A stretch of DNA of 64,000 nucleotides from an uncultured Candidatus Binatia bacterium (GCA_965213675.1 OZ243916.1:2176001-2240000); one strand, 5' to 3'; positions 5,076 to 22,621 are shown, counted from the stretch's first letter. Notes: generated by a model not told the origin, from the letters alone. Numbers and translations are program-made.

Positions 5076-5122
5076 GGTGCCTTGCTCCTCCGACAGGTCC
5101 GTCATGCCGGCGTGGTGTCCGG

Positions 5123-5746: not shown

Positions 5747-5777
5747 GCTTACCTCCCGGATCGTCGACTTCGCGCCA

Positions 5778-6938: not shown

Positions 6939-6980
6939 GGCCGGACTTCCCTATTGAAGGATATTGCAATAACGCCGCTC

Positions 6981-7013
6981 GCTATTGTAATTAGCACACT
7001 AATTTACAATAGC
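6981..7013. promoter_or_regulatory. Inverted repeat upstream of fic, probable operator
   Basis: GCTATTGTAA-N13-TTACAATAGC, perfect 10-bp arms in an AT-rich gap. Confidence 0.55.
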
Positions 7014-7041
7014 TGGACGCCTCTTACAATGTGCTTGCCAC

Positions 7042-8055: not shown

Positions 8056-8167
8056 GATGAAACCTCCTGACCTCCTGTTGTGGTGGATTGTGGTGGAGAT
8101 ACCCGACTTGACCCGTTAGCGCCATAGAGCGAGTGACTGATCTCAATCCTGCTCGAGTAGCGCGACG

Positions 8168-9391
8168 CTACAGGTCGGCGAAGGGAAGCGCGGTCACGCC
8201 GGAACCGAGGGGCAAGCGTATGTCACCGGGGTGCACCACGTAGCCGGGCATCGCGGTGCTGCCAATGTCTCCCTGCAGCGTCCTGATGGCACTGGCCATT
8301 GCCGGCCGCGGGGTCGCGGAAAGCTTTACCTCGATGGGGACGAGTCCACCGCTGGTCTCGACCACGAAGTCCACTTCCGTGCCCGCCACGGTCCGCCAGA
8401 AGTAGACTCGCGGCTCCATCCCCCGATGCGTCAGAGTCCGCACGATCTCGGACAGCACGGCCGTCTCCATGATTGCGCCGCCCATGGGGCCGGAGGCAGC
8501 ATGTTCGGGGTCCTTGAGACCTGCGAGATGGCACAGCGTGCCGACGTCGGCAAAGTACACCTTCGGGGTCTTGACGAACCGCTTTCCGACGTTGGCGAAA
8601 TAGGGGCGCAGCACGATCACCTGGTAGGTGGCCTCGAGCACGGACAGCCAAGCCTTGATCGAATTGACCGCCACCCCGAGGTCTCGAGCGACGTCGGCAA
8701 GATTCAGGAGTTGGGCGCTTCGGGCCGCCAGCAGGCGGAGAAAATTCTGATACTGGGTCAGGTCTCCCACCTGCCGGACGGTACGCACGTCCCGTTCAAG
8801 ATAGGTCTGGATGTAGCTGGCATGCCAGAGGGAGGCGTCCCGACCGGAGTCTACGGCGAGTTCCGGGTATCCGCCCCGAAGGAAGCGCTTCCACAGTTCG
8901 CCAAATCCATGTGGCGTTCTCGAAGACGGCGGACGCTTGCGTTCCCAAGCAAAGACGGTCCCAGGCCGTCCCTCGGCTTCCCGCCTCGACAACGGCAACA
9001 GGCGGAGCATAGCCGCGCGGCCCGCCAGCGATTCGGTCACCTTCTCGGCAAGCAATAGATTCTGTGAGCCGGTCAGAAGATATTGACCGTTCGTGTCGCG
9101 GTTCGCATCGATCTTCTCCTTGATGTAGGGAAGCAGTTCGGGCGCGTACTGCACCTCGTCAAGGACCACCGGTGCCGGATACAGTTCCAGAAACCCGCGC
9201 GGGTCATTCACGGCGGCCGCACGAACGTCCGGATGCTCCAGGGACACGTACCCGTAACGCCTACCAAAGAGATGTTGCAGCAGGGTTGTCTTGCCGGACT
9301 GGCGCGGCCCCGTCAGGACGACGGCGGGAAACTCCGCGGCCGCCTTCCTGAGAACGGGTTCGAGCGAGCGTTTGAGGTACGGCGAGCCCAT
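8168..9391 (-). CDS. AAA_14 ATPase with DUF4143 C-terminal domain
   Basis: GPRQSGKTT, LDEVQ, TGSQ, GGYP, KTPKVYFAD, EVDF..PIEVK. Confidence 0.9.
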   Translation of the reverse strand: MGSPYLKRSLEPVLRKAAAEFPAVVLTGPRQSGKTTLLQHLFGRRYGYVSLEHPDVRAAAVNDPRGFLELYPAPVVLDEVQYAPELLPYIKEKIDANRDTNGQYLLTGSQNLLLAEKVTESLAGRAAMLRLLPLSRREAEGRPGTVFAWERKRPPSSRTPHGFGELWKRFLRGGYPELAVDSGRDASLWHASYIQTYLERDVRTVRQVGDLTQYQNFLRLLAARSAQLLNLADVARDLGVAVNSIKAWLSVLEATYQVIVLRPYFANVGKRFVKTPKVYFADVGTLCHLAGLKDPEHAASGPMGGAIMETAVLSEIVRTLTHRGMEPRVYFWRTVAGTEVDFVVETSGGLVPIEVKLSATPRPAMASAIRTLQGDIGSTAMPGYVVHPGDIRLPLGSGVTALPFADL

Positions 9392-9398
9392 GGTGAAT

Positions 9399-9421
9399 AT
9401 TATGCATTCTTAGTGCATAAT
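9399..9421. promoter_or_regulatory. Inverted repeat overlapping the probable promoter of the AAA ATPase gene
   Basis: ATTATGCA-N7-TGCATAAT, lying between a minus-strand TTGAAA and the start codon. Confidence 0.55.
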
Positions 9422-9467
9422 TTCAATCCATCCGATCTACCTCCGTCCCACGGACGCCTCACGAAAC

Positions 9468-10232
9468 TCAACCGATGACCCGCTCCCCCGGCACGCTCCG
9501 GACGTCCATTTCAAACTCCAGTCCCTGGACCGGCGGCCGGGCGTAGGTCCATGTGACGCCGTCCGGCGCCGCACCCCGGCGGACGACCTCGTCGGCGAGA
9601 AACCCATGGATTTCGTGGACCGTGTAGAGCTGGCTCGTGGTGGCGTCCGCCCACGTCAGGCCCAACGCCGCCATCCGAAGCTCCAGCGCTCCGAGGACGA
9701 ACTGCGCCTTTTCCCGCATGGCGTCGGGCGACGTGTCCCCGAGACGGATGATCCGGGCGCCGTACCCGCCCGGTCCTTCGGGCGCTTCGCCGGAGCCCGC
9801 GATCACGAAGCTCTTGAGCCCCGCCGCGTCACCCGCCCCGGCCGGCACCGTGTACGAAAATGCATGGAAACAGGGTTCGCTCGGAGGACGCACCTCGGGA
9901 CACACGTTCGACCGTGCGACGGGGTTGTCGTCGTCCTTGAAGAGGCCCCACCGTTCGAGCGTGCTCACATAGACCCGATTGAACGCAATGAAGCCTTCTT
10001 CCGTGAACTGCCCCGGCGAGCGCAGCTCGCAAGCGCAGAACGCGGTGGGCGGCCGTCCGAGGCCGTCGAGATACGTCTCGATCCGGCGAAACCCTTCGTC
10101 GAGGGGCACGGGGCGCGCGAACCGGGCGCGTTCGATGACGAATCCCGGCTCCGCCGAAACACCCCCCGAGTACTGGAACCGGCCCCGCACGTACCGGTAC
10201 CCGCCGGGTTCGAAGACTGTTGTTTCCGCCAT
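9468..10232 (-). CDS. CnbZ-like protein (2-amino-5-chloromuconate deaminase family)
   Basis: FQYSGGV, CACELRSP, NPVARSNVCP, SFVIAGSGE, RPPVQGLEFEMDVR resemble CnbZ-family proteins; substrate unknown. Confidence 0.7.
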   Translation of the reverse strand: MAETTVFEPGGYRYVRGRFQYSGGVSAEPGFVIERARFARPVPLDEGFRRIETYLDGLGRPPTAFCACELRSPGQFTEEGFIAFNRVYVSTLERWGLFKDDDNPVARSNVCPEVRPPSEPCFHAFSYTVPAGAGDAAGLKSFVIAGSGEAPEGPGGYGARIIRLGDTSPDAMREKAQFVLGALELRMAALGLTWADATTSQLYTVHEIHGFLADEVVRRGAAPDGVTWTYARPPVQGLEFEMDVRSVPGERVIG

Positions 10233-10259
10233 GTCGCACCTCCCGTATCCGGAGTTCAG

Positions 10260-10769
10260 TCAAGCCTCGGCGCACCTTGCGATCTCCCGCGCCAACCCGT
10301 CGAAGATCTGGGCGTGGACCGGGTAAAGCCGGTACCAGTAAAGCAGGCCGCCCAGGCCCTTGGGAAGAAGAGCCGCGGTCTGCTCCAGCAGGGTCTTCCC
10401 GTCATCCGCCTCCGACACCCGGAACTGGAGCCAAGCGCGGCCCGGCAGCTTCATCTCCGCCCTCAGGCGGACCAGTCGCCCCGGCTCCAGGGCCTCCACC
10501 CGCCAGAAATCCAGCGCGTCGCCGACGCGCAGCTCGTCGGGGTGGCGGCGTCCCCGGCGCAGCCCCGGACCCCCCAGCAGACGGTCGACGATGCCCCGTA
10601 TCCGCCACATCCAGTCACCGTAAAACCATCCCCGGTCGCCGCCGATGCCGGTGAATACCCGGTGCACCTCCCGGGCCGGCGCGTCCACCTGTCGCGTGCG
10701 GCGTTCGAAGATCATGCCTTCGTGCGACTCCACGCGGGAGAAGGAGTCGGGCGTAGCTGCTGCAGGATC
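10260..10769 (-). pseudogene. C-terminal DUF2867 fragment of a YbjT-like NAD(P)-binding protein
   Basis: IGGDRGWFY...LRVGDALDFWRVE...AEMKLPG...GLLYWY. The frame opens only at about 10769 after a TGA, so the Rossmann domain is missing. Confidence 0.65.
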
Positions 10770-10813
10770 TCATAGTCGTGCTATGACACCCATCCACATA
10801 CAGATTCCCGCAG

Positions 10814-11491
10814 TCATCCCTTGAAAATGGTGTGAGCTACCTTTCCGACCGCCTGACACGCCGCCGCATCGAATGCCCCACCTACGAGGCCACCCACCAC
10901 TGGTACACCCTTCATAAGAACTATGGCACCTTTCTCTCCGGCTTTGGTCAATAACCGGAAGCCAACTCTCTTGTTTACCTCGATCAGAACTTTCCCGGGC
11001 ACTTGCATCACAACCTGTTTGGTCAGTTTACCTGCAATTGTAACTCCCGCCTGTTTCAGCACTTCCTTAGCGGAATCACCTACAATCGACAGCAATACAA
11101 ACGTTCTGACTCTATCCTCTTCAAGATCGTGCCCATCTATGACTGCTATTGCTCCTGCCATTCTGGCCTGAATTATCCAGGATGCACCCAACGCGGTCGG
11201 GACAGCGACAGGTAAAGCTAATAGCCCGCCCAAACCTGTAATAAACCCTGTCGTGAAATTTTTGCTGGTCTCCCACTTTATCAACGATGCAACTCGCTCG
11301 TCGTTGTCAGTGTACGACGCGTCAATCATATATTCTTGTGCCAAATTACTGGCTGACGATAAGGGTGGAACACCCTCTACCGCCTTACCAACAATCCACG
11401 TCACCAACTGTAATGCCTTCGGTTCATCATCAACCACGTGTTTGTCCTTCTTCGGGGCACCGTCTCCGGTCCTGACGATTCGCACGTTCAA
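10814..11491 (-). CDS. EcsC-family protein
   Basis: TGFITGLGG..LPVAVP, QARMAGAIA, INK-like VNKRVGFRLLTKAGEKG, VPVVGGLVGG; more AT-rich than neighbours; 4-bp overlap with hsdM. Confidence 0.8.
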   Translation of the reverse strand: MNVRIVRTGDGAPKKDKHVVDDEPKALQLVTWIVGKAVEGVPPLSSASNLAQEYMIDASYTDNDERVASLIKWETSKNFTTGFITGLGGLLALPVAVPTALGASWIIQARMAGAIAVIDGHDLEEDRVRTFVLLSIVGDSAKEVLKQAGVTIAGKLTKQVVMQVPGKVLIEVNKRVGFRLLTKAGEKGAIVLMKGVPVVGGLVGGAFDAAACQAVGKVAHTIFKG

Positions 11492-12981
11492 CCACCCGCA
11501 TGCCGCAAACCGGCAAGCATTTCGCGGAAACTGTTGAGGCCCGCCTCAAGGTTCTCGATGATCTCTTCGGCGAGGTCCTCGGGTTCGGGGAGGTTGTCGA
11601 GGTCGGTCAGGTTCTTGTCCTTGAGCCAGAAGATGTCGAGGCTGGTCTTGTCGCGTGCGGCGAGTTCTTCGTAACTGTAGCTGCGCCAGCGGCCTTCCGG
11701 CGCGTCGTTCTCGTCCCAGGTGCGCTTGCGCTGATGGCGGTTCCGCGGGTTGTAGCACTTCACGAAATCCAGCAGGTCCTCATAGCGCAGGGGCTTCTTC
11801 TTGAGGGTGTGGTGAATGTTGGTGCGGTAGTCGTAGTACCAGACCTGTTTCGTCCACGGGTCGGGGCTGGCTTCGCGGTTGTCGAAGAAGATCACGTTGG
11901 CCTTGACCCCCTGGGCGTAGAACACGCCGGTGGGAAGCCGGAGGATGGTGTGGAGGTCGGTGTTGTCCAGCAGTTTCTTCCGGATGGTCTCGCCGGCGCC
12001 GCCCTCGAACAGCACGTTGTCCGGCACCACGACCGCGGCGCGGCCGTCGGTCTTGAGCATGGTCTGGATGTGCTGCACGAAATTGAGCTGCTTGTTAGAC
12101 GTGGCTGCCCAGAAATCCTGCCGGTTGTAGGTCAGGTCGTCCGTCTCCTGCTCCCCTTCCTCGTTGGTGAAGCTCATGGAGCTCTTCTTGCCGAAAGGCG
12201 GGTTGGCGAACACGTAGTCGAACCGCTGCCCGGCGTCGGCCACGAGCGCGTCGTTGGACGATATGGGCGCGCCGCCGTCGATCTCGCCGATGTTGTGGAG
12301 GAGCATGTTCATGAGGCACAGGCGACGGGTATTGGCGACGATCTCGTTGCCGTAAAATGTCTCGTGCTTGAGAAACGCGTTCTGTTGCTGGTCCAGCTTG
12401 AAGTTGTCCTGGTTGGTGAGGAAGTCGTAGGCCGCCAGGAAGAACCCGCCGGTGCCGCAGGCGGGGTCGGCGATGAGCTTGCGGGGTTCGGGCCGCACGC
12501 ATTCCACCATGGCCCGGATGAGGGCGCGCGGCGTGAAATACTGCCCCGCGCCTGACTTGGTGTCCTCGGCGTTCTTCTCCAACAGCCCCTCGTAGATGTC
12601 ACCCTTGATGTCGGCGACCATGGTGACCCACTCGGTGGCGTCCACCATGTCGATGAGGCGGTAAAGCTTTGCCGGGTCCTGGATCTTGTTCTGGGCCTTG
12701 GTGAAGATCTGCCCCAACATGCCGGGCCTGGCGCCAAGCTCACGAAGCAGCGTGACGTAGTGGCTCTCCAGTTTCGCGCCCCGCTTCGACCTCAGACTCG
12801 TCCAGTTGTACTCGGCCGGGATGTCCACATCGCGATCGTAAGGCGGCTTCCCGTACTCGTCCGCCATCTTGAGAAAGATCAGGTAGGTGAGCTGTTCCAG
12901 GTAGTCGCCATAGCCGACGCCGTCGTCGCGCAGGGTGGTGCAGAAGCTCCAGACTCTGGAGACGATGGGAGCGGTGTTCAT
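11488..12981 (-). CDS. hsdM: Type I restriction-modification methyltransferase subunit
   Basis: GAGQYFTPR, DPACGTGGF, NPPF (m6A motif), VVPDNVLFE. Confidence 0.95.
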   Translation of the reverse strand: MNTAPIVSRVWSFCTTLRDDGVGYGDYLEQLTYLIFLKMADEYGKPPYDRDVDIPAEYNWTSLRSKRGAKLESHYVTLLRELGARPGMLGQIFTKAQNKIQDPAKLYRLIDMVDATEWVTMVADIKGDIYEGLLEKNAEDTKSGAGQYFTPRALIRAMVECVRPEPRKLIADPACGTGGFFLAAYDFLTNQDNFKLDQQQNAFLKHETFYGNEIVANTRRLCLMNMLLHNIGEIDGGAPISSNDALVADAGQRFDYVFANPPFGKKSSMSFTNEEGEQETDDLTYNRQDFWAATSNKQLNFVQHIQTMLKTDGRAAVVVPDNVLFEGGAGETIRKKLLDNTDLHTILRLPTGVFYAQGVKANVIFFDNREASPDPWTKQVWYYDYRTNIHHTLKKKPLRYEDLLDFVKCYNPRNRHQRKRTWDENDAPEGRWRSYSYEELAARDKTSLDIFWLKDKNLTDLDNLPEPEDLAEEIIENLEAGLNSFREMLAGLRHAGG

Positions 12982-14606
12982 GCGCGGGAGTCCTTCGATG
13001 TGGTCTTGGCCTGCCGCGCCAGGGCTTCGCCTGCCGCGGTGCGCCGATAACGCTGAATTCGGCTGGTTGGCTTGTCCGGGAGCGTCATTTCGATCAGACC
13101 GGCTTCGAGGGCGGGGCGGAGATACGCCATGAGGAAATGGGGCCGGTGAGTCAGGCTCAATGCAGCCTGCAATTCGGCGCGGCTCATCTCTCCGGTGAGG
13201 GCCACCACGAGTTGCCCGACTTGCCCGGTGACTTGCCCGGTGACTTGCCCGGTGACTTGCCCGGTGACTTGTTCGGTCTCATGTTCGGTGACTTGTTCGG
13301 TCTCATGTTTGGTGAATTGGGGGGCATCTTGTTCGGTGGGCTCCGGGCGCACCCGTTCGTGCACCGGAAGACGGACCAGAAACCACGTGCGGTCGTCGTC
13401 GCTCTCGAAAATTGGGGCCGGAGAGCCGTTTTCCCGCATGGCCCGCAGGATCTTGGGCACTCCGGTGGACCTGCCTTCGGCCAGATCGAGTTCCTTGAGA
13501 AACTCGCCGATTCGGCGGTTGCGGTAGCGGCGGCTCACGGCTTGCCCCTTCTCGAAGTCCTCCATGCGGATGGATCGGTCGGCGCCGGGAAAGCTCAAGA
13601 CCACCAACTCGTCAGGGGTGATGCGCACCTCCACCGGCTCCCGCTCCTCGTAAGAGCGATGGTAGACGGCGTTGACCAGCGCTTCCTCGATTGCGCCGAT
13701 GGGAAAGTTCCAGAATCGCTCGGCTTCCGGCTTGTACGGATGCTTGACGACCGTTTCCTTCAGGTAGTTCCGCTCGATGTAACCGATCGCCTCGCCGAGG
13801 ATGATCGACAGAGGGCCGCGGAACTCCTTTTCCTCGAATCGGTCCCCACCCGGGCCGTCCGGGAACCACACGACGTCGATCTGGGTTGCGGGGAAGAAGT
13901 CGTGCGGACGGTCGTTGAAGAACAGCAAGCCGACGTTCTTGGGGAACATCGCTTCGGGCGGTCCGCCGACGAGGTTCATGCGCTGACCCAGGGCCGCCAC
14001 CGACAGACCGGCGGCTTCAGAAGCGAGGTCGCTGCCTATATCCCGCAAAAACTCCCGGATCAGCCGATGGGACAGGTCATCCAGCGATGCCGTCTGGCGA
14101 TATCGATCATCGAAGGGCACGGTGGCGGTCAGGCTCAGCAACTCGCGCTCGTCCTGGCCCCTGGCCCGGACGGTGCTGCTGTGTCTGCGGATGAAATAGC
14201 CCCACTCTTGCCGTTTCGGCGTCAGGCCGAGCCTGGCCTTGTAGGGCCGGGTCTCGCCGCCGGGCGCCCACAGTACGAGGATTGTCCGGCCATCGACTTC
14301 ATAAGTGGCCGTAAGCGGGTGGTACTGGGGCTGTATGGCCGAGTGTCCGAGATTGAGCAGTTCCCTCTGTATCGCGTCAACCGAATCGGGATTAATGCCC
14401 GTGGGCGGCAGGACCGGACGGCCGTTCTGTTCCTCGACGCCCACTACCACGTAACCGCCGCCCAGATTGTGAAAGTCGTTGGCGAAGGCGCAGATGGTGT
14501 GCAGCACGGCCTTCGGATTCCAACCGGCCTTGTACTCGACGCGCTCGCCCTCGATGGTGCGCTGGCGCAGCAAGTCGTGGAGGTTGATGGGAAGCTTGCC
14601 GGTCAT
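12978..14606 (-). CDS. Schlafen/AlbA_2 + HATPase_c_4 + C-terminal HTH protein
   Basis: EGERVEYK...ICAFAN...GGYVVVGVEE (AlbA_2); EEALVNAVYHRSY, YRNRRIGEFLKELDLAEGRSTG; C-terminal wHTH ending PDKPTSRIQRY. Confidence 0.85.
   Translation of the reverse strand: MTGKLPINLHDLLRQRTIEGERVEYKAGWNPKAVLHTICAFANDFHNLGGGYVVVGVEEQNGRPVLPPTGINPDSVDAIQRELLNLGHSAIQPQYHPLTATYEVDGRTILVLWAPGGETRPYKARLGLTPKRQEWGYFIRRHSSTVRARGQDERELLSLTATVPFDDRYRQTASLDDLSHRLIREFLRDIGSDLASEAAGLSVAALGQRMNLVGGPPEAMFPKNVGLLFFNDRPHDFFPATQIDVVWFPDGPGGDRFEEKEFRGPLSIILGEAIGYIERNYLKETVVKHPYKPEAERFWNFPIGAIEEALVNAVYHRSYEEREPVEVRITPDELVVLSFPGADRSIRMEDFEKGQAVSRRYRNRRIGEFLKELDLAEGRSTGVPKILRAMRENGSPAPIFESDDDRTWFLVRLPVHERVRPEPTEQDAPQFTKHETEQVTEHETEQVTGQVTGQVTGQVTGQVGQLVVALTGEMSRAELQAALSLTHRPHFLMAYLRPALEAGLIEMTLPDKPTSRIQRYRRTAAGEALARQAKTTSKDSRA
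13218..13320 (-). repeat. Intragenic 12-bp tandem repeat encoding (QVTG)4 plus degenerate HETEQVTE units
   Basis: GACTTGCCCGGT x4 perfect at 13218-13265, then imperfect 12/24-bp units. Confidence 0.9.
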
Positions 14607-16204
14607 GACATTGTCTTGGCCCGTCTACGTTTTTCTGAAGTAATGGTGTGGCTGGAGCATGCCGCTTTGTCAGCCTTGATTCGTTCGAGCAACACAGAAG
14701 CAGGCTCATCGTTGGGATCCTGCGGGACGAGTCGACCTGCAAAGGCTTCATTCAAGATGGACTGACGTAGCAACACCGCTCGCTCCAAGGCAGCGATGAT
14801 CTCTCGCTCGCTCTCCTGAAGGAACTTGAACTTGTCCTCCAACAACAGAACGACTTCATGCTGTTCAAGGGGGGAACAAATAGGTAGGGCAAGCTGGGCA
14901 AACTTGTTTGCACTCAGGTGATTGATCCCAACACCGCCCGCGACTCGCGCAAATTTCCCACTCAAGTAATAAAAGCGGTAGAGCCACAGGAGATAGGCCG
15001 CATGCTCTCCGCAATAGGGTCGGTGTCGGATCACTGTATTTTGGAAACAGCAATTCGGAATCTGACCGTCCCAAATCGCCGGTTTACCGACCTGCGCTGC
15101 GCTTCCTGATGCTTCGGACAGCACCAAATCCCTCTTTTCCAGTCGATAAGTGTTCAATTCGTGGGGAGCAAATTCCATATCGAGGACGTCGTCCAACTCC
15201 AACCCCTGCTCCGTGATATTTGCTGCTCGAATATATTTTGTTGGGTAACTCTTTGACCTGTTCCTTGGAGATCGCTGACGACCGAGTTGAATGGCGCCTA
15301 CAACCTCGGCGGATAGCCATTGCCAACTACTGGGTAGTTTTTCCAATAGTCCCATCTCTTCTTCTGCAAACGCTGGCACCTGTTTTACGCCTCTCGGTTT
15401 GTTTGGCTTCTTTCCCTCCTTCCCATTGGCTTCCCACCGTCGAAGTGCGGTCTTCCAATCGGTGAGTTGTTGACCGTGCCGTGCTTCGCGCTCCCGCTTG
15501 ATGTGGATCAACAATTCCTCGGGCGTCTCGAGCTTATCCTTGTTCTCTTCGCGCCATTGCGCCGTGAGCTTGCCTTCGAAGGCGTGCTTCAGGACAGCTT
15601 GTCGATAGACTTCAAGGTGCCTGCGCGCCGTCTTCAGGCTCTCGATGCCCTTGTCGAGTTCCGAGAAGAGTTCTTCGATCTTGGCCACGATGCGGTGCTG
15701 CTCGTAGCGGGGGGCAAGTGGAACGGTTACTTTAGCAAGATTCCTGCGAGAAACTCTTTTTCGTGTTGACCCGGAGCTATGCGTTTCAATATCGGTTCGT
15801 GTGCGAGCACTATTGATGGCGTACATAACGTATTTGGGGTCGATCACCGAAGTACCTAGACGAACCACACACACGTCAACTACCGTTACGTACTCCTCCT
15901 CCCCATCCAGAGGGAAGATGCAGCAACGCCCGAGCGGCTCCGCCAATCGTGCGACGAGTAGATCTCCCTTAGCCAGAAACGTGCAATTCAAAGCATGGGC
16001 TTTAGCTCTGGTTAGAAATCGGGCGGATTTGTCGAGGAAATTCCCGTCCCCGATGTCCGCCAATTGGACGAGTCGAACGGCCCCGTTGGGATCCTGATCC
16101 TTGGTCTCCACCCAATCGCCGTCGGTGAAGAGTCCATCAGACGCAACCAACTCACCAATGCTGGCATCCACCCAAGCGGAATGTGCCGCGCCGTCGTCCC
16201 TCAT
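14603..16204 (-). CDS. hsdS: Type I restriction-modification specificity subunit
   Basis: Two TRDs with PLAPRYEQHRIVAKIEELF and SPLEQHEVV conserved regions; AFAGRLVPQDPNDEPASVLLERI tail. Confidence 0.93.
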   Translation of the reverse strand: MRDDGAAHSAWVDASIGELVASDGLFTDGDWVETKDQDPNGAVRLVQLADIGDGNFLDKSARFLTRAKAHALNCTFLAKGDLLVARLAEPLGRCCIFPLDGEEEYVTVVDVCVVRLGTSVIDPKYVMYAINSARTRTDIETHSSGSTRKRVSRRNLAKVTVPLAPRYEQHRIVAKIEELFSELDKGIESLKTARRHLEVYRQAVLKHAFEGKLTAQWREENKDKLETPEELLIHIKREREARHGQQLTDWKTALRRWEANGKEGKKPNKPRGVKQVPAFAEEEMGLLEKLPSSWQWLSAEVVGAIQLGRQRSPRNRSKSYPTKYIRAANITEQGLELDDVLDMEFAPHELNTYRLEKRDLVLSEASGSAAQVGKPAIWDGQIPNCCFQNTVIRHRPYCGEHAAYLLWLYRFYYLSGKFARVAGGVGINHLSANKFAQLALPICSPLEQHEVVLLLEDKFKFLQESEREIIAALERAVLLRQSILNEAFAGRLVPQDPNDEPASVLLERIKADKAACSSHTITSEKRRRAKTMS

Positions 16205-18966
16205 CCCGCCAACGCCTCATTCAACTCATCAATCACGCCGTCCATCCGGTCGCCAAACAACCGGTACATCCGCCCCAACCCGCCCTTGCCGTCGAACGGC
16301 GCCATGTCCAGGTCGCCGGGTTCCAGGTGAAAGGACTGGCTGATGTGGTCCCGGATCATGCGGAGCCACTCCATCTGCTCTTCGTTGAACTTCTCACCGC
16401 CGCCGCTGTGGTGGGTCATGATCCAGTTCTGGAAATTGCGGCGCACGGTTTCGGCGTAGGGCGACAGGGTCGCGTCGATGCCGCACACCCTGCGGATCAG
16501 TGCGACCAGCGCCGTGAGCTCGCTGGCCGGTTGGCCGCCCTTGTATTCATCCAGCAGGGCGTAGGCCTGCCACACCCGCAAGGGGGACAACAAGGGTCGA
16601 TCGCTCTTGAGCCTGTCGAACACCTCCCGGATCATGGCGTAGGTCAGCTCCCGGCGGCGATGCGGCTGGTCGTAGAAGATCGTGAGGGCTTCGATCTCGT
16701 CGCGGTGAGCTTCCATGTAGCTATGGAAGTCCTGCACCATAGACTCGGCGTTCTCTTCGGCGTCGCCCTCCCATTCGGCGCGGAGGACAGTGTCCAGGCT
16801 TTCGTGGTCGATGGTCTGTTCCTTGTCGCGGCGGATGGAGTCGATCAGCTCGATCAACTCCCCGTTGAAGACGGCCGCGGCGTCGCCGACCAAGTGTTCC
16901 CGCGCCTTGTCGTACGCCACGGGCGACGGCCTCATGCCTTCAGACACGGGCTCCATCTCGCGCGCCTTCTCGTCGATGCGGTCCGGATCAATGGCGGCCA
17001 GCAGATTGCCGACGATCTTCGTCAGTTCGGCACCCCCGGCCTTCGCCTTGATCCGTTCCTTCTCGGCGGAGTCGAGCTGTTGATCGAGCCGGGCGAGGCG
17101 GCCGGCCAGGGACGCCACCGTGTCCTCGTCGCGCGCTCCCATCATCACGCCCATGGCGAGATCCTTGAGCGGCACGGAAGGCTTGGTGATGAGCGGCCCG
17201 CTGGCGGTCTTGAGCGACTTCGTGACCCCCACGGCGTCCACGATCACGTAGTGGGTCTTGGCGGTGAGAGCCGACGGCGTGACCTTCCTGAGATCGTCGT
17301 GGCCGAGGGTGCGGGTGCCGCGACCCTTCATCTGCTCGAAGTAGTTGCGGCTCCGCACGTCGCGCATGAACAGCAGGCATTCCAGCGGCTTCACGTCGGT
17401 GCCGGTGGCGATCATGTCCACGGTCACGGCAATCCGCGGGTAGTAGTCGTTGCGGAACTGGGCGAGGACGGACCTCGGGTCCTCCTCGACCCGGTACGTG
17501 ATCTTCTTGCAGAACTCGTTGCCCTCGCCGAACTCCTCGCGCACGGTCTGGATGATGTCGTCGGCGTGGCTGTCGGTCTTGGCGAAGACCAGCGTCTTCG
17601 GGACTTCCGTGCGGCCGGGGAATATCTCTGGCAGCTTGTCCCGGAAGGCGCGGACGACGGTGCGGATCTGGTCCGGGTTCACCACGCTGCGGTCGAGCTG
17701 GTTGGCGGCATAGGTGGTGTCCTCGTCCTGTACCGCCCAGCGGCTCCGGCGCGTCAGGCGCTCGCGCTTCTCGATCTGCTGGTTGGCCCTGAGTTGGCCG
17801 CCGTGGCGGGTCCTCTCCGTGTCGATGGCATATATTTCGTTGCCCACGTTGACGCCGTCGGCCACGGCCTGCTCGTGGTCGTATTCGCTGACGACGTTGG
17901 TCCTGAAGAACCCGTAGGTGCGACTGTCCGGCGTGGCGGTGAGGCCGATGAGATAGGCGTCGAAGTATTCCAGGACCTGGCGCCACAAGTTGTAGATCGA
18001 CCGGTGGCACTCGTCGATGATGACGAAGTCGAAGAACTCCGGCGGAATCCTGTCGTTGTAGACCACCGGCATGGGTTGTCTGGGCTGGACTAGTTCCTCC
18101 GGATTGATATTCTCCGCGGACTCGTCCATCTCCTGGCCCTTGAGGAGCGAGTACACGCGCTGGATGGTGCTGATGCAGACCTGGCTGTCCCCCGCGACGT
18201 AGGACGACCTGAGCCGCTGCACGTTGTAGAGCTCGGTGAACTTGCGGTTGTCGTCGCCGGGCAGGTAGGCCATGAACTCCTGCTCGGCCTGTTCGCCCAA
18301 GTTCCTGGTATCCACCAGGAAAAGAACCCGCTTGGCGTCGGCGTGCTTGAGAAGCCGGTAGATCGACGTGATGGCGGTGTATGTCTTGCCGGAGCCCGTG
18401 GCCATCTGGATCAGGGCACGCGGGCGGTCGTCCTTGAAGGATTCCTCCAGCTTCTCGATGGCGTTGACTTGGCACGCCCGCAGGCCGGCCGGGGCCAACT
18501 CCGGAAGCCCCTGGAGCCGCTTGCGGAGCGAGGCCGGCTGAGCGCGCCAGTCCTGTACGGTCTCCGGCCGGGGAAAGCCGAACACTTCGCGGGATCGGGG
18601 CTTGGGATCGCGCCCATCGGTGAAGCGGGTCAATACGCCGGTGGACTCGTAGACGAAAGGCAGCGGCTCCTCGTTGTTGAACCAGTTCAACTTCGCAGCG
18701 GCATAGGCGGAAGACTGCTCCTCGACGATGGTGATCTTCTCGCCCCATACTGCCGGTTTGGCCTCGACCACCCCCACCGGCTTCTTGTCGACGAAGAGAA
18801 CGTAGTCGGCCGGGCCGACGTCGGTCTGATACTCGCGAACGGCGACCCCAAGGCCAGCGCTGAAGTCAATCTTCTTCTTGTCCTGAACGACCCATCCCGA
18901 CTGGGACAGTATCGCATCGATCCTGTCCCGGGCAGTCTGTTCGCGGGTTTGGTTGGGGCTTGCCAT
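16201..18966 (-). CDS. hsdR: Type I restriction endonuclease R subunit (EcoEI-like)
   Basis: ADYVL..VVEAK nuclease, MATGSGKT, DECH, LTATP, QMKGRGTR. Confidence 0.95.
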   Translation of the reverse strand: MASPNQTREQTARDRIDAILSQSGWVVQDKKKIDFSAGLGVAVREYQTDVGPADYVLFVDKKPVGVVEAKPAVWGEKITIVEEQSSAYAAAKLNWFNNEEPLPFVYESTGVLTRFTDGRDPKPRSREVFGFPRPETVQDWRAQPASLRKRLQGLPELAPAGLRACQVNAIEKLEESFKDDRPRALIQMATGSGKTYTAITSIYRLLKHADAKRVLFLVDTRNLGEQAEQEFMAYLPGDDNRKFTELYNVQRLRSSYVAGDSQVCISTIQRVYSLLKGQEMDESAENINPEELVQPRQPMPVVYNDRIPPEFFDFVIIDECHRSIYNLWRQVLEYFDAYLIGLTATPDSRTYGFFRTNVVSEYDHEQAVADGVNVGNEIYAIDTERTRHGGQLRANQQIEKRERLTRRSRWAVQDEDTTYAANQLDRSVVNPDQIRTVVRAFRDKLPEIFPGRTEVPKTLVFAKTDSHADDIIQTVREEFGEGNEFCKKITYRVEEDPRSVLAQFRNDYYPRIAVTVDMIATGTDVKPLECLLFMRDVRSRNYFEQMKGRGTRTLGHDDLRKVTPSALTAKTHYVIVDAVGVTKSLKTASGPLITKPSVPLKDLAMGVMMGARDEDTVASLAGRLARLDQQLDSAEKERIKAKAGGAELTKIVGNLLAAIDPDRIDEKAREMEPVSEGMRPSPVAYDKAREHLVGDAAAVFNGELIELIDSIRRDKEQTIDHESLDTVLRAEWEGDAEENAESMVQDFHSYMEAHRDEIEALTIFYDQPHRRRELTYAMIREVFDRLKSDRPLLSPLRVWQAYALLDEYKGGQPASELTALVALIRRVCGIDATLSPYAETVRRNFQNWIMTHHSGGGEKFNEEQMEWLRMIRDHISQSFHLEPGDLDMAPFDGKGGLGRMYRLFGDRMDGVIDELNEALAG

Positions 18967-18972
18967 TGCCGC

Positions 18973-20439
18973 TCAATCGCCGGTGGTCTCTTGCCGGGGC
19001 TGTTCCTGAAGCTGCCAATCGCTGGTGTAGTAGGCCTTCAAGTCTCCACTCCCGCCATTCTCTCGATAGTAGATGATCGCTTGTTTCTGCCCGACATCGT
19101 CCTGTGAGGCAAGGTCGTCCAACAGTTCTGAAATATGAGACCGCAACGTTACGAGACTGCGCTCCGGACCTGACTGAATCCTGTCCATCTCCGCCTCTTT
19201 TTCCACGCGCGCCCCCCGCCAAGAAACGTTCCTTTTCCACCACCCCATGCCGTCGACAGAATTCTGCAGATCCTCGCGGTATTCTTCGATCGCGTCATTC
19301 TCCAAGAGTTCTCTGAAAGACTTTTCGTAGTCGTTTATCCGTGAATTTAACGCGGAGAACCTTCTGTAAGCATCATCCGGATTGTCCTGAAGAGCCAGCT
19401 TCGACCGGAGATGGTCGATCTGGATATCCGCGAGACTTGCTGCCGTGAACAACTCGATATCGGACAGGGCAAGATTGGCCTCGAGCTCGGATCCAACAGG
19501 CCTCTTCAAAAGAAAAGCGTACTTCTGACGCAGGACGTTCAGATCTCTTTCCGCCAGTGCCAGGCGGGTCCTCATATCATCCGTGAAACGCCGGCATCCG
19601 TCGAACTCTTCGGAAACATCCCGCAGTCGTCCCAACGCGCTGGCAAGAGCAGCGTAGTCATCTGCGGTGTGACGGACGAGCAATTGCTCCACCACCTTCG
19701 CCAATTGGTCCAGAGAACCTTGAATCTGGTCCAGGCGAGCACAAGTCATCATTGACGATAGCGTCGTGAAGAGCATGACAGGCACGACAACCGGCAGAAT
19801 GGCACCACTTGCCGCAACGAACGGCGCTTGTGCGATAATCCCTCCCGGCCCCATCACGGCCGAACCGACACCGGTGCCGATTTGCATCAAGGTAGCGGGG
19901 TTGGCCGTCGCCAGGAAGACGTTGCCCGCGAGCAGGGCAGATGTCGCGGCGGCCCCAGCGCCGGCAATCGGTAGACAAGCCGTATCCAGTATCCCCCCGG
20001 ATCGAAAGGGTTCCCCGCGCGCAAGGATATTCTTGTCTATTTGACGTCTCAATACACGGCTCAAGTCTGTACCGAAGTCAATGACGCCGAGTTTTTGTCC
20101 TTCGAATTCTATAATCTGTCCCTCTGGATGCCCCGGTACTCCGTCATCCCGGACCACGGCGACACCAGCCTCCTCGGTCGATCTTTCCGTATCCGTAGCC
20201 GATCCTTCCGTATCCGCGACCGAGGCGGCCCTGCGTCTGGCCACGGTCCAGACACCTATCGCAAGGGCCAAAGACAAGACCGCGAGCGATGCAACCTGTT
20301 GCCCGGTGAAACCGAGCACAAGACCCGAAAGGATGGCGAGGACAGCGACGATTACGATGGCGGCCAGCATGGCTCCGTCCACACCAGCACCCAACCTGCT
20401 TGCCCGGAATCCTCCCCCTGAACGCCGTTTTTCCGCCAT
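18973..20439 (-). CDS. Hypothetical membrane protein (2 N-terminal TM helices, central Gly/Ala hydrophobic segment, helical C-terminus)
   Basis: ATG 20439 overlaps the RES stop (TGATG) after GGAGG; about 488 aa; stops 6 bp before hsdR. Confidence 0.75.
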   Translation of the reverse strand: MAEKRRSGGGFRASRLGAGVDGAMLAAIVIVAVLAILSGLVLGFTGQQVASLAVLSLALAIGVWTVARRRAASVADTEGSATDTERSTEEAGVAVVRDDGVPGHPEGQIIEFEGQKLGVIDFGTDLSRVLRRQIDKNILARGEPFRSGGILDTACLPIAGAGAAATSALLAGNVFLATANPATLMQIGTGVGSAVMGPGGIIAQAPFVAASGAILPVVVPVMLFTTLSSMMTCARLDQIQGSLDQLAKVVEQLLVRHTADDYAALASALGRLRDVSEEFDGCRRFTDDMRTRLALAERDLNVLRQKYAFLLKRPVGSELEANLALSDIELFTAASLADIQIDHLRSKLALQDNPDDAYRRFSALNSRINDYEKSFRELLENDAIEEYREDLQNSVDGMGWWKRNVSWRGARVEKEAEMDRIQSGPERSLVTLRSHISELLDDLASQDDVGQKQAIIYYRENGGSGDLKAYYTSDWQLQEQPRQETTGD

Positions 20440-21152
20440 CACGACACCTCCGACCTTGATATCTCCACTTCCGCCGACCCCGCCCACCGGAATACCCAAG
20501 CCTCGCCTTCGCGGACGTTTTGCACAAGAATGGGCCGGAATGCCGCCAGGCACTTCCCGCCTTCGTAGCGGGCGGATGGGTACAGCACACCGTTCCCGCC
20601 AACCGCCAGGATGTCCCGGGCCAGCGCCTGCCCCGCGGGATAGGCTTCGGCCGGGTCCTCACTGAATACGGCCTCCCCCGTCCTCTCGCCGAGATCATGG
20701 AACCGGCTCACGAAGCCGGCCAGAAGCTCCCGGAATTCTGTGATGTTCTCGTAGATGCCGGTGGCGCGAAGCTCGCGCGTGAGGTGCCACGCAACCTCGG
20801 CCTTGGCCGTGTCCGTCGCGTTGTTCCCGTACGACGCATACCACGCGCCGCGTTCGGGGCCGTTGAACCGGTTGCCCATGGGGCGCGTGTGGCAGAACGC
20901 CGCGTTCACGTGGTTCCAGCCGTCCCCGTCGGCCTTCGTCAGCAATTCTCCCGGTTGGATGCCGGCGGGGACTGTCCATGAAAATGGCGTCATGGATGAC
21001 GTGAGCCCTTCGATCTCTTCCAGAATAGCGCGCTCGGCCGGATCGTCCGCGAGCAGCGCCATGACCGGCTGGTCCACGTAGCCGGCCGTGACCAGGCGAA
21101 CGGTGGCCGGCTCGACGACCTCACGGACCGGGAGGTCCGCGGCGCGGATCAC
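20439..21152 (-). CDS. RES-domain toxin (NAD+ phosphorylase/ART-like)
   Basis: NRFNGPERGAWYA, AEVAWH, GVLYPSAR (R-E-S residues). Confidence 0.88.
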   Translation of the reverse strand: MIRAADLPVREVVEPATVRLVTAGYVDQPVMALLADDPAERAILEEIEGLTSSMTPFSWTVPAGIQPGELLTKADGDGWNHVNAAFCHTRPMGNRFNGPERGAWYASYGNNATDTAKAEVAWHLTRELRATGIYENITEFRELLAGFVSRFHDLGERTGEAVFSEDPAEAYPAGQALARDILAVGGNGVLYPSARYEGGKCLAAFRPILVQNVREGEAWVFRWAGSAEVEISRSEVS

Positions 21153-21598
21153 GCTCCGCTCCGGAGCGCGTCGATGTGCTGCCGGGCTCGCATCATGGCG
21201 GGGATGCCGCCGGCGCTCATGACCTCGAGCGGGGTCTTGCCGTCAAAACCAAGGCCGGTGTTGGGAGCCTTGGGCCAGCCAAAGGCCAGCGGTCCGTTGA
21301 AGAGCGATGCAAGCCCGTTGAACAATCCGATGATCAGGCTCGCGCGAGTCAACTTGTCCTGGTCGAGGATGCCCCTGTAGCTGCCGGCCTTCATGCGGCT
21401 CCAGGTGGCCGTGGGCACGTCGAACAGCGCGGCGCCCTCGGTATTGGTCAAACCCCAGGCATCGGCCGCGCGCACCACGGCCTTGACGATGACCGCGACC
21501 CTGTCACGGTCCCCGAGGGGCATGAGGAGTCTGTCTCGGGGAATATCTCGAAGTTCTCGAAGTGGACGCGCCATTCTCCAGCTCTCTTGTTGGATCAT
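21149..21598 (-). CDS. Xre/MbcA/ParS-family antitoxin
   Basis: WGLTNTEGAALF HTH and W...PN...F.GKTPLEVM..GG..A...R..IDALR C-domain; start may be 21574. Confidence 0.88.
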   Translation of the reverse strand: MIQQESWRMARPLRELRDIPRDRLLMPLGDRDRVAVIVKAVVRAADAWGLTNTEGAALFDVPTATWSRMKAGSYRGILDQDKLTRASLIIGLFNGLASLFNGPLAFGWPKAPNTGLGFDGKTPLEVMSAGGIPAMMRARQHIDALRSGA

Positions 21599-21639
21599 AT
21601 GATGATTAATAAAGTATCATATGATAGACACGGCGTCAA
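21594..21639 (-). promoter_or_regulatory. Sigma70 promoter with two palindromic operators for the TA/RM operon
   Basis: TTGACG(21639-34)-N17-TACTTT(21616-11); ATCATATGAT at 21594-21603 and 21616-21625. Confidence 0.7.
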
Positions 21640-21774
21640 TCCTTCAACAGACCCACTCCAAACTGTTTGATTGCGTTGGGAGTGCCGCGTGGCATAGTAT
21701 GCGCGCCTGATCGAGGGCATGCCCACGGCAGGGGTCATGGGCCTTACTGTCGAGTTCAAACAAAGGAGGAGAAC

Positions 21775-22206
21775 ATGGCTTATTCCGGAGGGTGCGACCA
21801 CGTCAAGACTCACTCTGACAACGATCCGATCGACGTCCACACCTGTCACTGCTCCGTATGCAAGCGCGTCACCGGACAACCCACGACCCATGTCGCGTTC
21901 TTCGCACACGCTGACATCGTCGTCGACAAACTCGATGGCCTGAACCGCCAGCCGTTCAACGATCAGAACCCGGATGGTCCTCTGGAACTGTGTGCCTGCA
22001 CGGACTGCGGCACGCCTATCATGCTCGATGACAAGATGGGGCGCATTCGCGCAATCGCACCGAACCTGATGGGCTTTGACCCGGACAGCATGCCGGCGAC
22101 CTATCACGCCTTCTACGATCCGGCCACCGGTGTCCCGCGACCGGACGACGGCCGCCCGGTTCATGAAGGGCTTCGCCCGGACTTCGTCTGGCCCGACCCG
22201 TCCTGA
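21775..22206 (+). CDS. GFA/CENP-V family Zn-binding protein
   Basis: YSGGC, CHCSVC, CTDCGTP; ATG follows AGGAGG. Confidence 0.85.
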   Translation: MAYSGGCDHVKTHSDNDPIDVHTCHCSVCKRVTGQPTTHVAFFAHADIVVDKLDGLNRQPFNDQNPDGPLELCACTDCGTPIMLDDKMGRIRAIAPNLMGFDPDSMPATYHAFYDPATGVPRPDDGRPVHEGLRPDFVWPDPS

Positions 22207-22237
22207 AGCAAACCCCCTTTCCGCGGCGCCACAGACG

Positions 22238-22272
22238 GCAAGACCCCGACGGGTTCTCCCATCGGGGTCTTG
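22238..22272. terminator. Hairpin downstream of the GFA gene
   Basis: CAAGACCCCGA-N12-TCGGGGTCTTG inverted repeat; no strong U tract. Confidence 0.45.
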
Positions 22273-22322
22273 CGCCAACCGGAAAGAAACGTCCGGTCGA
22301 TCAAGCGTTGGGTTCAGGCGTT

Positions 22323-22472
22323 TCAGCCGATGACCCGCTCCACCGGCACGGTATACGCGAACGCATGAAAGCTGGGTTCGCCGGGAGGATCGACCTCGGG
22401 ACAGACGTTGGAACGCGCGACGGGGTTCTCCTCGTTCTTGAAAATGCCCCAGCGTTCGAGGGTCCCCACATA
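22323..22472 (-). pseudogene. Internally deleted remnant of a second cnbZ-like paralog
   Basis: Translates YVGTLERWGIFKNEENPVARSNVCPEVDPPGEPSFHAFAYTVP|VERVIG*; 34/43 aa identical to part of 9468-10232, then jumps to its C-terminal ERVIG. Confidence 0.9.
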
Positions 22473-22545
22473 GGAGTCTGCGGCGCAGGCTCCGAGGACA
22501 ACTACGCATTTCGCACGGCGTGTGGGGGTCGGTGGGGGTGGGAGT

Positions 22546-22621
<76 letters not shown>

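Follow-up and report, generated by a model that had tools for sequence, protein, structure and literature searches.

The locus described here lies in a 64-kb stretch of DNA (64,000 nucleotides, referred to as the window) from an uncultured member of the Candidatus Binatia and consists of eight open reading frames (ORFs), all on the minus strand, that together span positions 10814-21598. In the order of transcription they encode an Xre-type antitoxin, a RES-domain toxin, a protein of a family lacking characterization (referred to as g3), the restriction and specificity subunits HsdR and HsdS of a type I restriction-modification (RM) system, a Schlafen-GHKL protein with a winged helix-turn-helix (wHTH) domain (referred to as g6), the methyltransferase HsdM, and an EcsC-like protein. 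Domains were called with the Pfam, PADLOC, and NCBIfam profile libraries, and these identifications support the defense-type gene content proposed in the initial annotation of this DNA, which viewed the eight genes as one coevolved, layered system. We instead consider it probable that the locus is a mosaic chromosomal defense hotspot, in which separate modules are packed head-to-tail into one probable transcription unit.

The ORF map agrees with the initial annotation in placing all eight genes on one strand, and the letters at the junctions agree with the six overlaps of 1 to 4 bp and the one 6-bp gap given there, with some uncertainty about the start of the last gene. The Xre/RES junction, read letter by letter, is a 4-nt overlap (GTGA), and RES and g3 meet at GTGATG, with an overlap of 1 nt if g3 starts at ATG 20439 or 4 nt if it starts at GTG 20442. 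A gap of 6 nt separates g3 from hsdR (TGA-GCGGCA-ATG), and the hsdR/hsdS, hsdS/g6, and g6/hsdM junctions are each a 4-nt overlap at ATGA, giving the restriction genes the order R-S-[g6]-M. The last junction is another 4-nt overlap (TTGA) if the EcsC-like gene starts at TTG 11491; the alternative start GTG 11437, with AAGGA 7 nt upstream, would leave a 51-nt gap after hsdM. No terminator-like sites were found at any junction in a scan of 10000-22500. An assembled read contig (X1), possibly from the same sample as the assembly, covers 10162-11642 without differences, a segment that includes the DUF2867 remnant, the EcsC-like gene, and the end of hsdM. None of the sequencing runs listed for this DNA is recorded as RNA. 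All features are listed in Table 1.

Table 1. Positions of the eight genes, their promoter, and the flanking features in the window
Feature	Position	Strand	Remarks
Xre-RES promoter	21594-21639	-	-35, O1, -10-like, O2
Xre-type antitoxin	21149-21598	-	Longest ORF 149 aa; conserved start ATG 21574 gives 141 aa
RES-domain toxin	20439-21152	-	237 aa; PF08808
g3, family without characterization	18973-20439	-	488 aa; cargo of the RES/hsdR slot
hsdR, type I restriction subunit	16201-18966	-	921 aa; EcoAI/EcoEI-like
hsdS, specificity subunit	14603-16204	-	533 aa; two target-recognition domains
g6, Schlafen (AlbA_2) + GHKL ATPase (HATPase_c_4) + C-terminal winged helix	12978-14606	-	542 aa
hsdM, type I methyltransferase	11488-12981	-	497 aa
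EcsC-family gene, PADLOC PDC-S29 match	10814-11491	-	Start TTG 11491 or GTG 11437
DUF2867 remnant	10260-10733	-	C-terminal 157 aa; PF11066; eroded right border of the island
GFA-family gene, divergent	21667-22206	+	PF04828; left anchor of the island in congeners by synteny
tRNA-Asn	22546-22621	-	Beside the left anchor

We compared the locus with 27 congeners (Candidatus Binatia), which together with this genome make up 28 genus genomes; individual genomes are cited by G numbers and loci by L numbers. The site between the GFA gene and the SDR/DUF2867 gene varies among the congeners. Two congeners, G012 and G022, have the string Xre-RES-g3-hsdR-hsdS-g6-hsdM intact, and in G008, G020, and G016 it is decayed. 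RES orthologs of at least 79% identity occur in 12 of the 28 genus genomes, this one included, and full-length hsdR occurs in nine. The two are found together in eight genomes, a RES ortholog is found without full-length hsdR in four, and hsdR is found without a RES ortholog in G021. For example, G027 has kept Xre-RES, part of g6, and hsdM, and G007 has kept Xre-RES and g6.

Two positions in the string hold exchangeable cargo. The slot between RES and hsdR carries HEPN-like and nucleotidyltransferase-like ORFs in G004 and G013 (names given by N-terminal resemblance only). In G026 it holds a BrnT/BrnA-like pair and what remains of g3, its final 34 codons; in G003 (L138 9165-13281), five low-GC3 genes (160, 126, 492, 429, and 168 aa) form a cassette of 8 kb; in G021 it is empty. 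The first two genes of the G003 cassette resemble ubiquitin-like and E2-like proteins by their N-termini. The position after hsdM carries BrnT/BrnA-like genes, NYN-like genes, or, in G013 and G027, a short g3 paralog (47-51% identity). The G+C content at third codon positions (GC3) is 0.79-0.89 for Xre, RES, hsdR, g6, and hsdM and 0.79-0.91 for most genes called at 24-64 kb of the window; g3 (0.63), hsdS (0.58), and the EcsC-like gene (0.52) are foreign in composition.

These comparisons bear directly on the proposal of a single layered system comprising all eight genes, with RM guarded by RES (through NAD depletion), the Schlafen protein (through RNA cleavage), and the membrane proteins g3 and EcsC, all under Xre autoregulation. 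Co-oriented genes with 1- to 6-nt junctions, a single conserved operator-bearing promoter upstream, cargo ORFs that consistently abut hsdR, and the shared order of seven of the genes in G012 and G022, where identities are 80-98% (34% for hsdS in G022), would all suit such a system. However, the EcsC-like gene is missing from all 17 other island loci of the congeners, the g3 slot holds unrelated cargo or nothing in G004, G013, G026, G003, and G021, and the toxin-antitoxin (TA) pair and RM occur apart from each other (G007, G027, and G021). Outside the genus, g3 is not beside RES/Xre, and three of the genes are foreign in GC3, as described above. A single conserved eight-gene system was therefore rejected, and we regard the layered reading as improbable. 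The initial annotation had named as its refutation that the accessory genes never occur with hsdRMS elsewhere; this is the case for EcsC, it is not for the Schlafen gene, and for g3 and RES-Xre it is so in part.

Several observations nevertheless weigh against a purely mosaic origin. For unrelated neighbors one would expect looser junctions than the 1 to 6 nt seen between these modules of different origin, and the tightness could reflect selection for joint expression, that is, some functional integration. A locus from another family of the phylum (L133; G275, 4765-10816) carries a short RES gene and a small upstream ORF just before a decayed g6-hsdS-hsdR string, an independent case of RES beside a type I RM system with a Schlafen gene; this RES is not detectably similar to the window RES by tblastn. 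In addition, four loci outside the genus (L036, L037, L078, and L079) have a Schlafen-GHKL gene no more than 10 kb from a g3 homolog, which may point to nonrandom partnerships.

In its conserved flanks, its nearby tRNA, and the variable defense and TA cassettes of its close relatives, the locus resembles known defense hotspots with exchangeable cargo. It differs from them in that the cargo lies inside a co-oriented string. Because this cargo ends at a fixed point before hsdR, it appears to have been spliced into the operon and not placed beside it. The tRNA-Asn gene lies approximately 340 nt beyond the GFA anchor, a position typical of integration hotspots, and no integrase was seen between the anchors.

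The first module is a putative type II TA pair. The Xre protein matches the Xre-like HTH family PF20432 (E = 9.6e-10; 39.1 bits versus a cutoff of 25.8), with a C-terminal region resembling the MbcA/ParS domain PF09722 that scores 21.8 bits, below the cutoff of 24.5, and a score of 19.6 bits against NCBIfam NF049845, which has a cutoff of 90. The RES protein matches PF08808 (E = 5.6e-22; 78.9 bits versus a cutoff of 23.2), and contains RFN at 95 (R95) and YPS at 191 (S193). RES toxins degrade NAD+ or ADP-ribosylate targets, and by analogy the toxicity of this protein would be directed at NAD. The pair resembles the Xre-RES, ParST, and MbcTA systems in its antitoxin-first order, its overlapping stop and start codons, its Xre-like HTH followed by an MbcA/ParS-resembling region, its RES toxin, and the palindromic operators over its promoter. 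Unlike in those systems, the C-terminal domain of the antitoxin falls below the Pfam cutoff and far below that of the NCBIfam subfamily model, no terminator follows the toxin, and g3 begins on the RES stop codon. A second, distant RES paralog (39% identity) is encoded in the same genome outside the window, at G000:C1:2962498-2963118, and similar ones are found in several congeners.

The initial annotation had placed a promoter with twin operators before the antitoxin, and this part of it holds up well. A -35 element (TTGACG, 21639-21634) and a -10-like element (TACTTT, 21616-21611) are separated by a 17-nt spacer. The first operator (O1) is ATCATATGAT at 21616-21625, over the spacer and the -10 element, and the second (O2) is the same palindrome at 21594-21603, just downstream of the -10 region, with the two copies 22 nt apart. 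With one mismatch allowed, ATCATATGAT has only these two matches in 64 kb, where 0.39 are expected, and two or more matches were obtained in 7 of 100 shuffles. We compared 13 promoters, consisting of that of the window and those of 12 orthologous congener loci. Twelve of the 13 keep the core TCATATGA in both places, and L137 departs from it by a single mismatch in its second site. TTGAC lies approximately 9 nt upstream of the first palindrome in 11 of the 13; the surrounding sequence varies. The Xre start that is kept among orthologs is the second ATG, at 21574 (MARPL...), and the first ATG lies inside O2.

In sequence, this layout is that of a classic autorepressed TA promoter. Most likely, Xre, alone or with RES, would repress its own promoter by binding the two TCATATGA palindromes. 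A scan of 10000-22500 for a sigma-70-like consensus returned one site, at 20052-20024 inside g3, where 2.5 are expected. The Xre promoter (TTGACG-17-TACTTT) scores below the threshold of that scan, and the sigma-70 consensus may not be that of the host lineage. The initial annotation had called the Xre promoter the only evident one, a statement that could be checked in part, and internal promoters may exist. Counts from the sigma-70 and terminator scans are at or below shuffled expectation and are not used as evidence.

The second module is a type I RM system of the EcoAI/EcoEI-like kind (type IB), for which HsdR, HsdM, and HsdS all carry the expected domains. HsdR matches ResIII (1.2e-40), EcoEI_R_C (1.1e-39), and PADLOC REase_I. 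HsdM matches N6_Mtase (2.4e-72), HsdM_N, and PADLOC MTase_I (8.7e-197), and HsdS matches Methylase_S in two stretches and PADLOC Specificity_I (1.2e-86). The system is like EcoAI and EcoEI in combining ResIII with EcoEI_R_C, HsdM_N with N6_Mtase, and an HsdS with two target-recognition domains. It is unlike them in that an extra gene stands between hsdS and hsdM and in that hsdR has no promoter space of its own; moreover, the EcoAI and PRK11448 equivalog models are matched below their cutoffs (192 bits versus 550 for NF046051 and 373 bits versus 729 for NF008521). Across congeners hsdS identity ranges from 34 to 98%, while hsdR and hsdM are at 89-96%, a divergence pattern that, at the sequence level, is the usual swapping of specificity domains.

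The start of hsdR appears to be a fixed point in an otherwise changing neighborhood. The 15-30 nt before the hsdR ATG (...GGCGAGTGAGCGG(C)AATG) are kept regardless of what lies upstream, and in 8 of 11 loci an ORF of at least 200 codons stops 5-10 nt before this ATG. The abutting ORF is g3 in five loci, different cargo ORFs in G004 and G013, and yet another in G003, these last three being unrelated. The exceptions are G020, in which g3 is broken by a stop codon, G026, and G021. In G021 Xre-RES is internally deleted, with C-terminal codons of RES remaining approximately 70 nt before hsdR, and operator-like palindromes and TTGAC are found approximately 180 nt upstream of an intact hsdR. Across these loci, cargo is thus replaced upstream of a fixed docking point with the stop-start arrangement kept.

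Since cargo usually ends 5-10 nt before the hsdR start, restriction expression probably depends on upstream transcription and translation. The lack of intergenic space, the lack of a terminator at the junctions, and the promoter remnant before hsdR in G021 together make transcription from the Xre promoter with coupling the likeliest arrangement, and on the whole we favor the view that the Xre promoter drives transcription of hsdR and that its translation is coupled to that of the ORF upstream. The 231-nt gap upstream of hsdR in G026, which leaves room for another promoter, counts against this coupling, and promoters inside g3 or other cargo may also drive hsdR. The initial annotation had tied RM expression to autoregulation of the TA pair; a dependence on upstream expression does fit the junctions and the congener variants, and cotranscription is the part that we infer.

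The same observations could be read as showing that Xre-RES mainly stabilizes or controls the island, with Xre acting like an RM controller protein and the toxin penalizing loss of the island. Xre-RES is anchored beside GFA in 12 of the 28 genus genomes whatever lies downstream, G021 has retained the operator-like palindromes and TTGAC before hsdR after its Xre-RES deletion, and the window leaves no intergenic space before hsdR. Yet the gap in G026 could hold another promoter, and RM persists without Xre in G021. We view this role as possible but not the likelier one, and it overlaps the mosaic hotspot reading without excluding it.

The g6 protein matches PF04326 (2.4e-12), PF13749 (1.2e-10), and the Fic-like C-terminal winged-helix family PF21247 (2.1e-24), and the solved structure nearest to it in sequence is that of a Fic protein C-terminal domain (4rgl, 2.2e-12). 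The nuclease motif Ex4ExK (E19-GERV-E24-Y-K26) is invariant in 15 of 15 aligned homologs, as are the GHKL residues E308 and N312, which have the same spacing as E314 and N318 of RzAgo. With its nuclease motif, GHKL E/N pair, and wHTH domain, g6 belongs with the proteins called pSlfn-HisKinase-HTH or Schlatpase. The linker between the GHKL and wHTH domains (approximately residues 430-465; window approximately 13210-13320, minus strand) consists of four-residue repeats (VTGQ/VTEH), and the linkers of homologs have other repeat units (VTPQ, VESG, SRPE, and VNVP) and varying length.

Wherever a congener keeps the system, g6 is found between hsdS and hsdM, and hsdS-g6-hsdM is the only recurring unit of the string. 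In G004 and G021 ORFs are inserted before g6. These hsdS/g6 insertions make up a third cargo slot, with ORFs of 707 and 358 aa in G021 (L139 11736-14932) and 441 aa in G004 (L136 9011-10336). Among the read contigs of three runs, a joint 12984>15519 would leave out g6 along with the C-terminal half of hsdS; its shorter side is only 36 letters, and a related organism is a possible source.

Relatives of g6 at E <= 1e-20 were found in 51 of 401 phylum genomes sampled. We inspected 12 loci of the closest relatives (40-61% identity) with larger flanks and Pfam. In three of them (L124, L130, and L133), the relative is part of a type I RM operon whose HsdR belongs to another family. The gene order is hsdM-hsdS-g6-hsdR-YgjP in L124 and L130, and L133 is a decayed version. 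In L126 the relative stands between an MmeI-like methyltransferase and helicases, in L128 it adjoins AAA_21/RloB genes, and in the remaining loci it stands beside TA, integrase, partition, or housekeeping genes. A tblastn search of the window HsdM and HsdS against 1.5-kb flanks of g6 relatives had returned RM neighbors in 5 of 29 loci, a figure that is insensitive and superseded by this inspection.

PrrC is a latent anticodon nuclease in the EcoprrI type I RM locus. Like prrC, g6 is a gene for a putative latent, tRNA-directed nuclease among hsd genes, and a backup role for g6 is suggested by this analogy. Unlike PrrC, which joins an ABC-type ATPase to an anticodon nuclease, g6 joins a Schlafen domain to a GHKL ATPase, and the two are not of the same family. 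We rejected membership of g6 in the PrrC family, as only Schlafen, GHKL, and wHTH domains were found, leaving a functional analogy only.

Schlafen-kinase-wHTH genes inside methylation-based defense loci are already in print, and RM with a backup RNase is a described theme. In one report, the pSlfn active site is given as Ex4(E/D)xK, and the pSlfn-HisKinase-HTH group accounts for 19.2% of 5,930 prokaryotic Schlafens (PMC13056530). Another report describes a Schlafen plus GHKL "Schlatpase" in Poribacteria, either free-standing in type I RM loci or fused to their HsdS, and a SLFN-pAgo fusion that cleaves tRNA after ATP-driven tetramerization (bioRxiv 10.64898/2026.05.29.728809). According to a third report, proteins with a Schlafen domain, a histidine kinase of minimal form, and a wHTH domain show linkage to the core loci of BREX in 1017 or more taxa and are called backup suicidal effectors (PMC12839542). 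The g6 protein shares with these proteins an identical three-domain architecture, the Ex4ExK motif, and the GHKL E...N pair, as well as being embedded in a methylation-based defense operon, as in the type I RM loci of Poribacteria and in BREX. It differs from the pSlfn and Schlatpase examples in standing between hsdS and hsdM of an EcoAI-like Candidatus Binatia system and in being known from sequence alone.

An older annotation of such genes as "transcriptional regulator / RecG-like" raises the alternative that g6 is a DNA-binding regulator of hsdM and hsdS and not a nuclease effector. The C-terminal winged helix, the relationship to 4rgl, and the position directly before hsdM with a 4-nt overlap would suit a regulator. 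We consider this very unlikely, as the nuclease and GHKL residues are invariant in all 15 aligned homologs, G007 has an intact g6 though hsdR, hsdS, and hsdM are gone, and related architectures provide phage defense via tRNA cleavage (bioRxiv 10.64898/2026.05.29.728809, PMC13056530). Judging from its relatives, g6 would most likely be a latent tRNase, switched by ATP, that shuts down translation upon failure of restriction. The suggestion in the initial annotation that a Schlafen-HATPase gene within RM serves as a backup RNase is accordingly a plausible one, given the invariant motifs and an architecture already published for BREX and RM.

The g3 protein has no match in Pfam, PADLOC, NCBIfam, or PHROG, including when 21 family members were scanned singly. 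An exhaustive profile search among 1.84 billion representatives recovered relatives in 380 clusters at E <= 1e-3; some homolog searches used a query starting at GTG 20442, with one extra N-terminal codon. The window protein has an N-terminal extension with two hydrophobic helices (approximately residues 21-79), and most relatives, of approximately 390 aa, lack this extension or have other N-terminal hydrophobic segments. Of two structure models of g3, one reached a pLDDT of 62, and the other, a model of the core from 64 sequences, reached a pLDDT of 77 and a pTM of 0.65. The predicted core has a beta-sheet head, to which both N- and C-terminal strands contribute, as well as a long helical bundle; a Gly/Ala-rich hydrophobic stretch is highly conserved and poorly modeled. 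A Foldseek search of the models against the PDB gave nothing at E <= 1e-3, VIA-align gave best Z scores of 11.9-12.7 to helical bundles (CorA stalks and designed proteins), where noise for helical models is about 13, and the ESM Atlas returned unnamed clusters only. No relation to EcsC was found with hhalign, and a scan of viral contigs returned no g3 relatives. The initial annotation had cast g3 as a membrane-acting effector, a description that goes beyond the predicted membrane segments, with no family or fold match behind it.

The distribution of g3 is patchy, with the gene present in 10 of 27 congeners. We examined 47 g3-homolog loci outside the island, of which 45 are from other lineages (Vicinamibacterales, Longimicrobiales, other Gemmatimonadota, Gammaproteobacteria, Nitrospirales, and others) and two are at other sites in congeners. 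Neighbor lists came from an amino-acid log-odds gene caller, with approximate start codons, and 139 of 160 neighbor proteins were scanned against PADLOC families at E <= 1e-10. A PADLOC-family neighbor was found within two genes of g3 in 25 of the 47 loci (36/139 proteins), and a named system in 15 of them. As a distance control, genes 6-7 positions away matched PADLOC families in 14 of 38 loci (18/101 proteins). Since distant genes still match, the islands must be large, the control is not a genomic background, and related genomes are not independent. Neighbors are co-directional and within 150 nt upstream of the g3 homolog in 17 of 43 loci and downstream in 16 of 44.

The systems represented near g3 homologs are diverse. 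ZacB/ZacC, which we take to belong to the system named Azaca, lie directly upstream in L035, L036, and L078. In L037 PglZ is upstream and BrxL is downstream, and HmaC or HmaA is nearby in L053 and L054. AbiE and SoFic are found in L030, RmrA in L040 and L063, a type I REase or MTase in L046, L059, and L078, a type II MTase and a type IV REase in L050 and L064, a CBASS-type phospholipase with an E2 protein in L062, and IetS in L070. None of the loci examined outside the genus has a g3 homolog next to RES/Xre. In three loci of Longimicrobiales/Gemmatimonadota, the g3 homolog overlaps the start of a giant gene of approximately 1,900 aa that weakly matches Sacsin (GHKL-like) and NOV_C (L037 11125-17016, L040 11131-16911, and L044 11126-16756). 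In L037, pglZ and brxL flank the pair formed by the g3 homolog and the giant gene, and two Schlafen-GHKL genes are found upstream.

We regard g3 as an autonomous, mobile gene of defense islands, and we propose only tentatively that it is itself a defense or accessory gene. A more speculative extension is that g3 founds a family of accessory defense proteins, in which a beta-head and helical bundle, membrane tethered in the long form and soluble in the short form, would serve as an exchangeable layer on methylation- or helicase-based systems, with the restriction operon as a docking platform where the cargo ORF drives hsdR translation. The hosts of such a layer would be the type I RM system of this genus, BREX (with g3 between pglZ and brxL), and loci where g3 immediately follows ZacC or stands beside HmaA/HmaC. 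It is also possible, though less likely than not, that g3 is an ordinary housekeeping or stress protein, associated with the membrane, that landed in variable regions and has no role in defense. The 22 of 47 loci without a PADLOC-family neighbor within two genes could be explained in this way, as could neighbors such as a luciferase-like monooxygenase, FtsX, NHL-repeat proteins, and a ring hydroxylase, the lack of any toxin-like or nuclease-like domain in library scans, and the lack of a relative on viral contigs. An ordinary housekeeping role is harder to reconcile with the defense-family neighbors and named systems counted above, with the occupation by g3 of the same two slots as TA-type cassettes in congeners, and with its patchy distribution and foreign GC3.

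The last gene of the string matches PF12787 (EcsC, 4.9e-11) and, at near full length, the PADLOC model PDLC04988 (PDC-S29; 9.4e-72, with residues 22-224 aligned to positions 13-213 of the 220 in the profile). Homologs were found in 2 of the 28 genus genomes, this one included, and in 9 of 401 phylum genomes; the single congener homolog (G020, 46% identity) is on another contig. The PDC-S29 model also matches Bacillus subtilis and Synechococcus control genomes. PDC-S29 is listed by name in a PADLOC table in the available part of the sole paper found by that name (PMC11514479). The gene thus resembles the PDC-S29/EcsC family in its near full-length model match and its Pfam EcsC domain; it differs in context, as four other PDC-S29 loci of the phylum have genes of CRISPR type or vWA type nearby (going by N-terminal sequence) and are away from type I RM, and PDC-S29 is itself only a candidate. 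We regard the EcsC/PDC-S29 gene as a defense candidate at best and as strain-specific cargo after hsdM.

On its right side the island is eroded. The DUF2867 ORF corresponds to the C-terminal 157 aa of an SDR-DUF2867 gene that is 483-508 aa long and intact in congeners, and it is probably a pseudogene remnant. Its truncation beside the EcsC-like gene suggests that the EcsC cassette arrived with, or was followed by, a deletion. The conserved gene at 9468-10232 lies beside DUF2867 in the window and on the GFA side in several congeners (L013, L014, L021, L139, and L141), pointing to rearrangement of the island flanks.

In the mosaic reading that we prefer, the hotspot would be bounded by the GFA gene, with tRNA-Asn beside it, and the SDR/DUF2867 gene. 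The first module would be the Xre-RES type II TA pair, and the second would be the EcoAI/EcoEI-like system hsdR-hsdS-[g6]-hsdM, providing the primary methylation-based discrimination. Two cargo slots, between RES and hsdR and after hsdM, would flank RM and take up single- or two-gene cassettes by recombination. In this strain they hold g3 and the EcsC/PDC-S29 gene, both of foreign composition, either of which may have a role in defense.

The locus cautions that tight gene strings need not be designed systems, as coupled junctions can join modules that relatives swap freely. The kind of island is itself already known, and the combination of a TA pair, a Schlafen-bearing type I RM system, and exchangeable cargo in one probable operon is probably a further example, one that adds an EcoAI-like type I RM system to the methylation-based systems known to carry a Schlafen-GHKL-wHTH gene. 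The more interesting leads are the hsdR docking point and the g3 family, with g3 as the most novel part of the locus. The fixed stop-start docking point before hsdR suggests that restriction expression is slaved to the upstream cargo or promoter, and the unnamed g3 family, with its 380 clusters, occurs in defense islands of several bacterial phyla and within loci for BREX, ZacBC, Hma, and type I RM.

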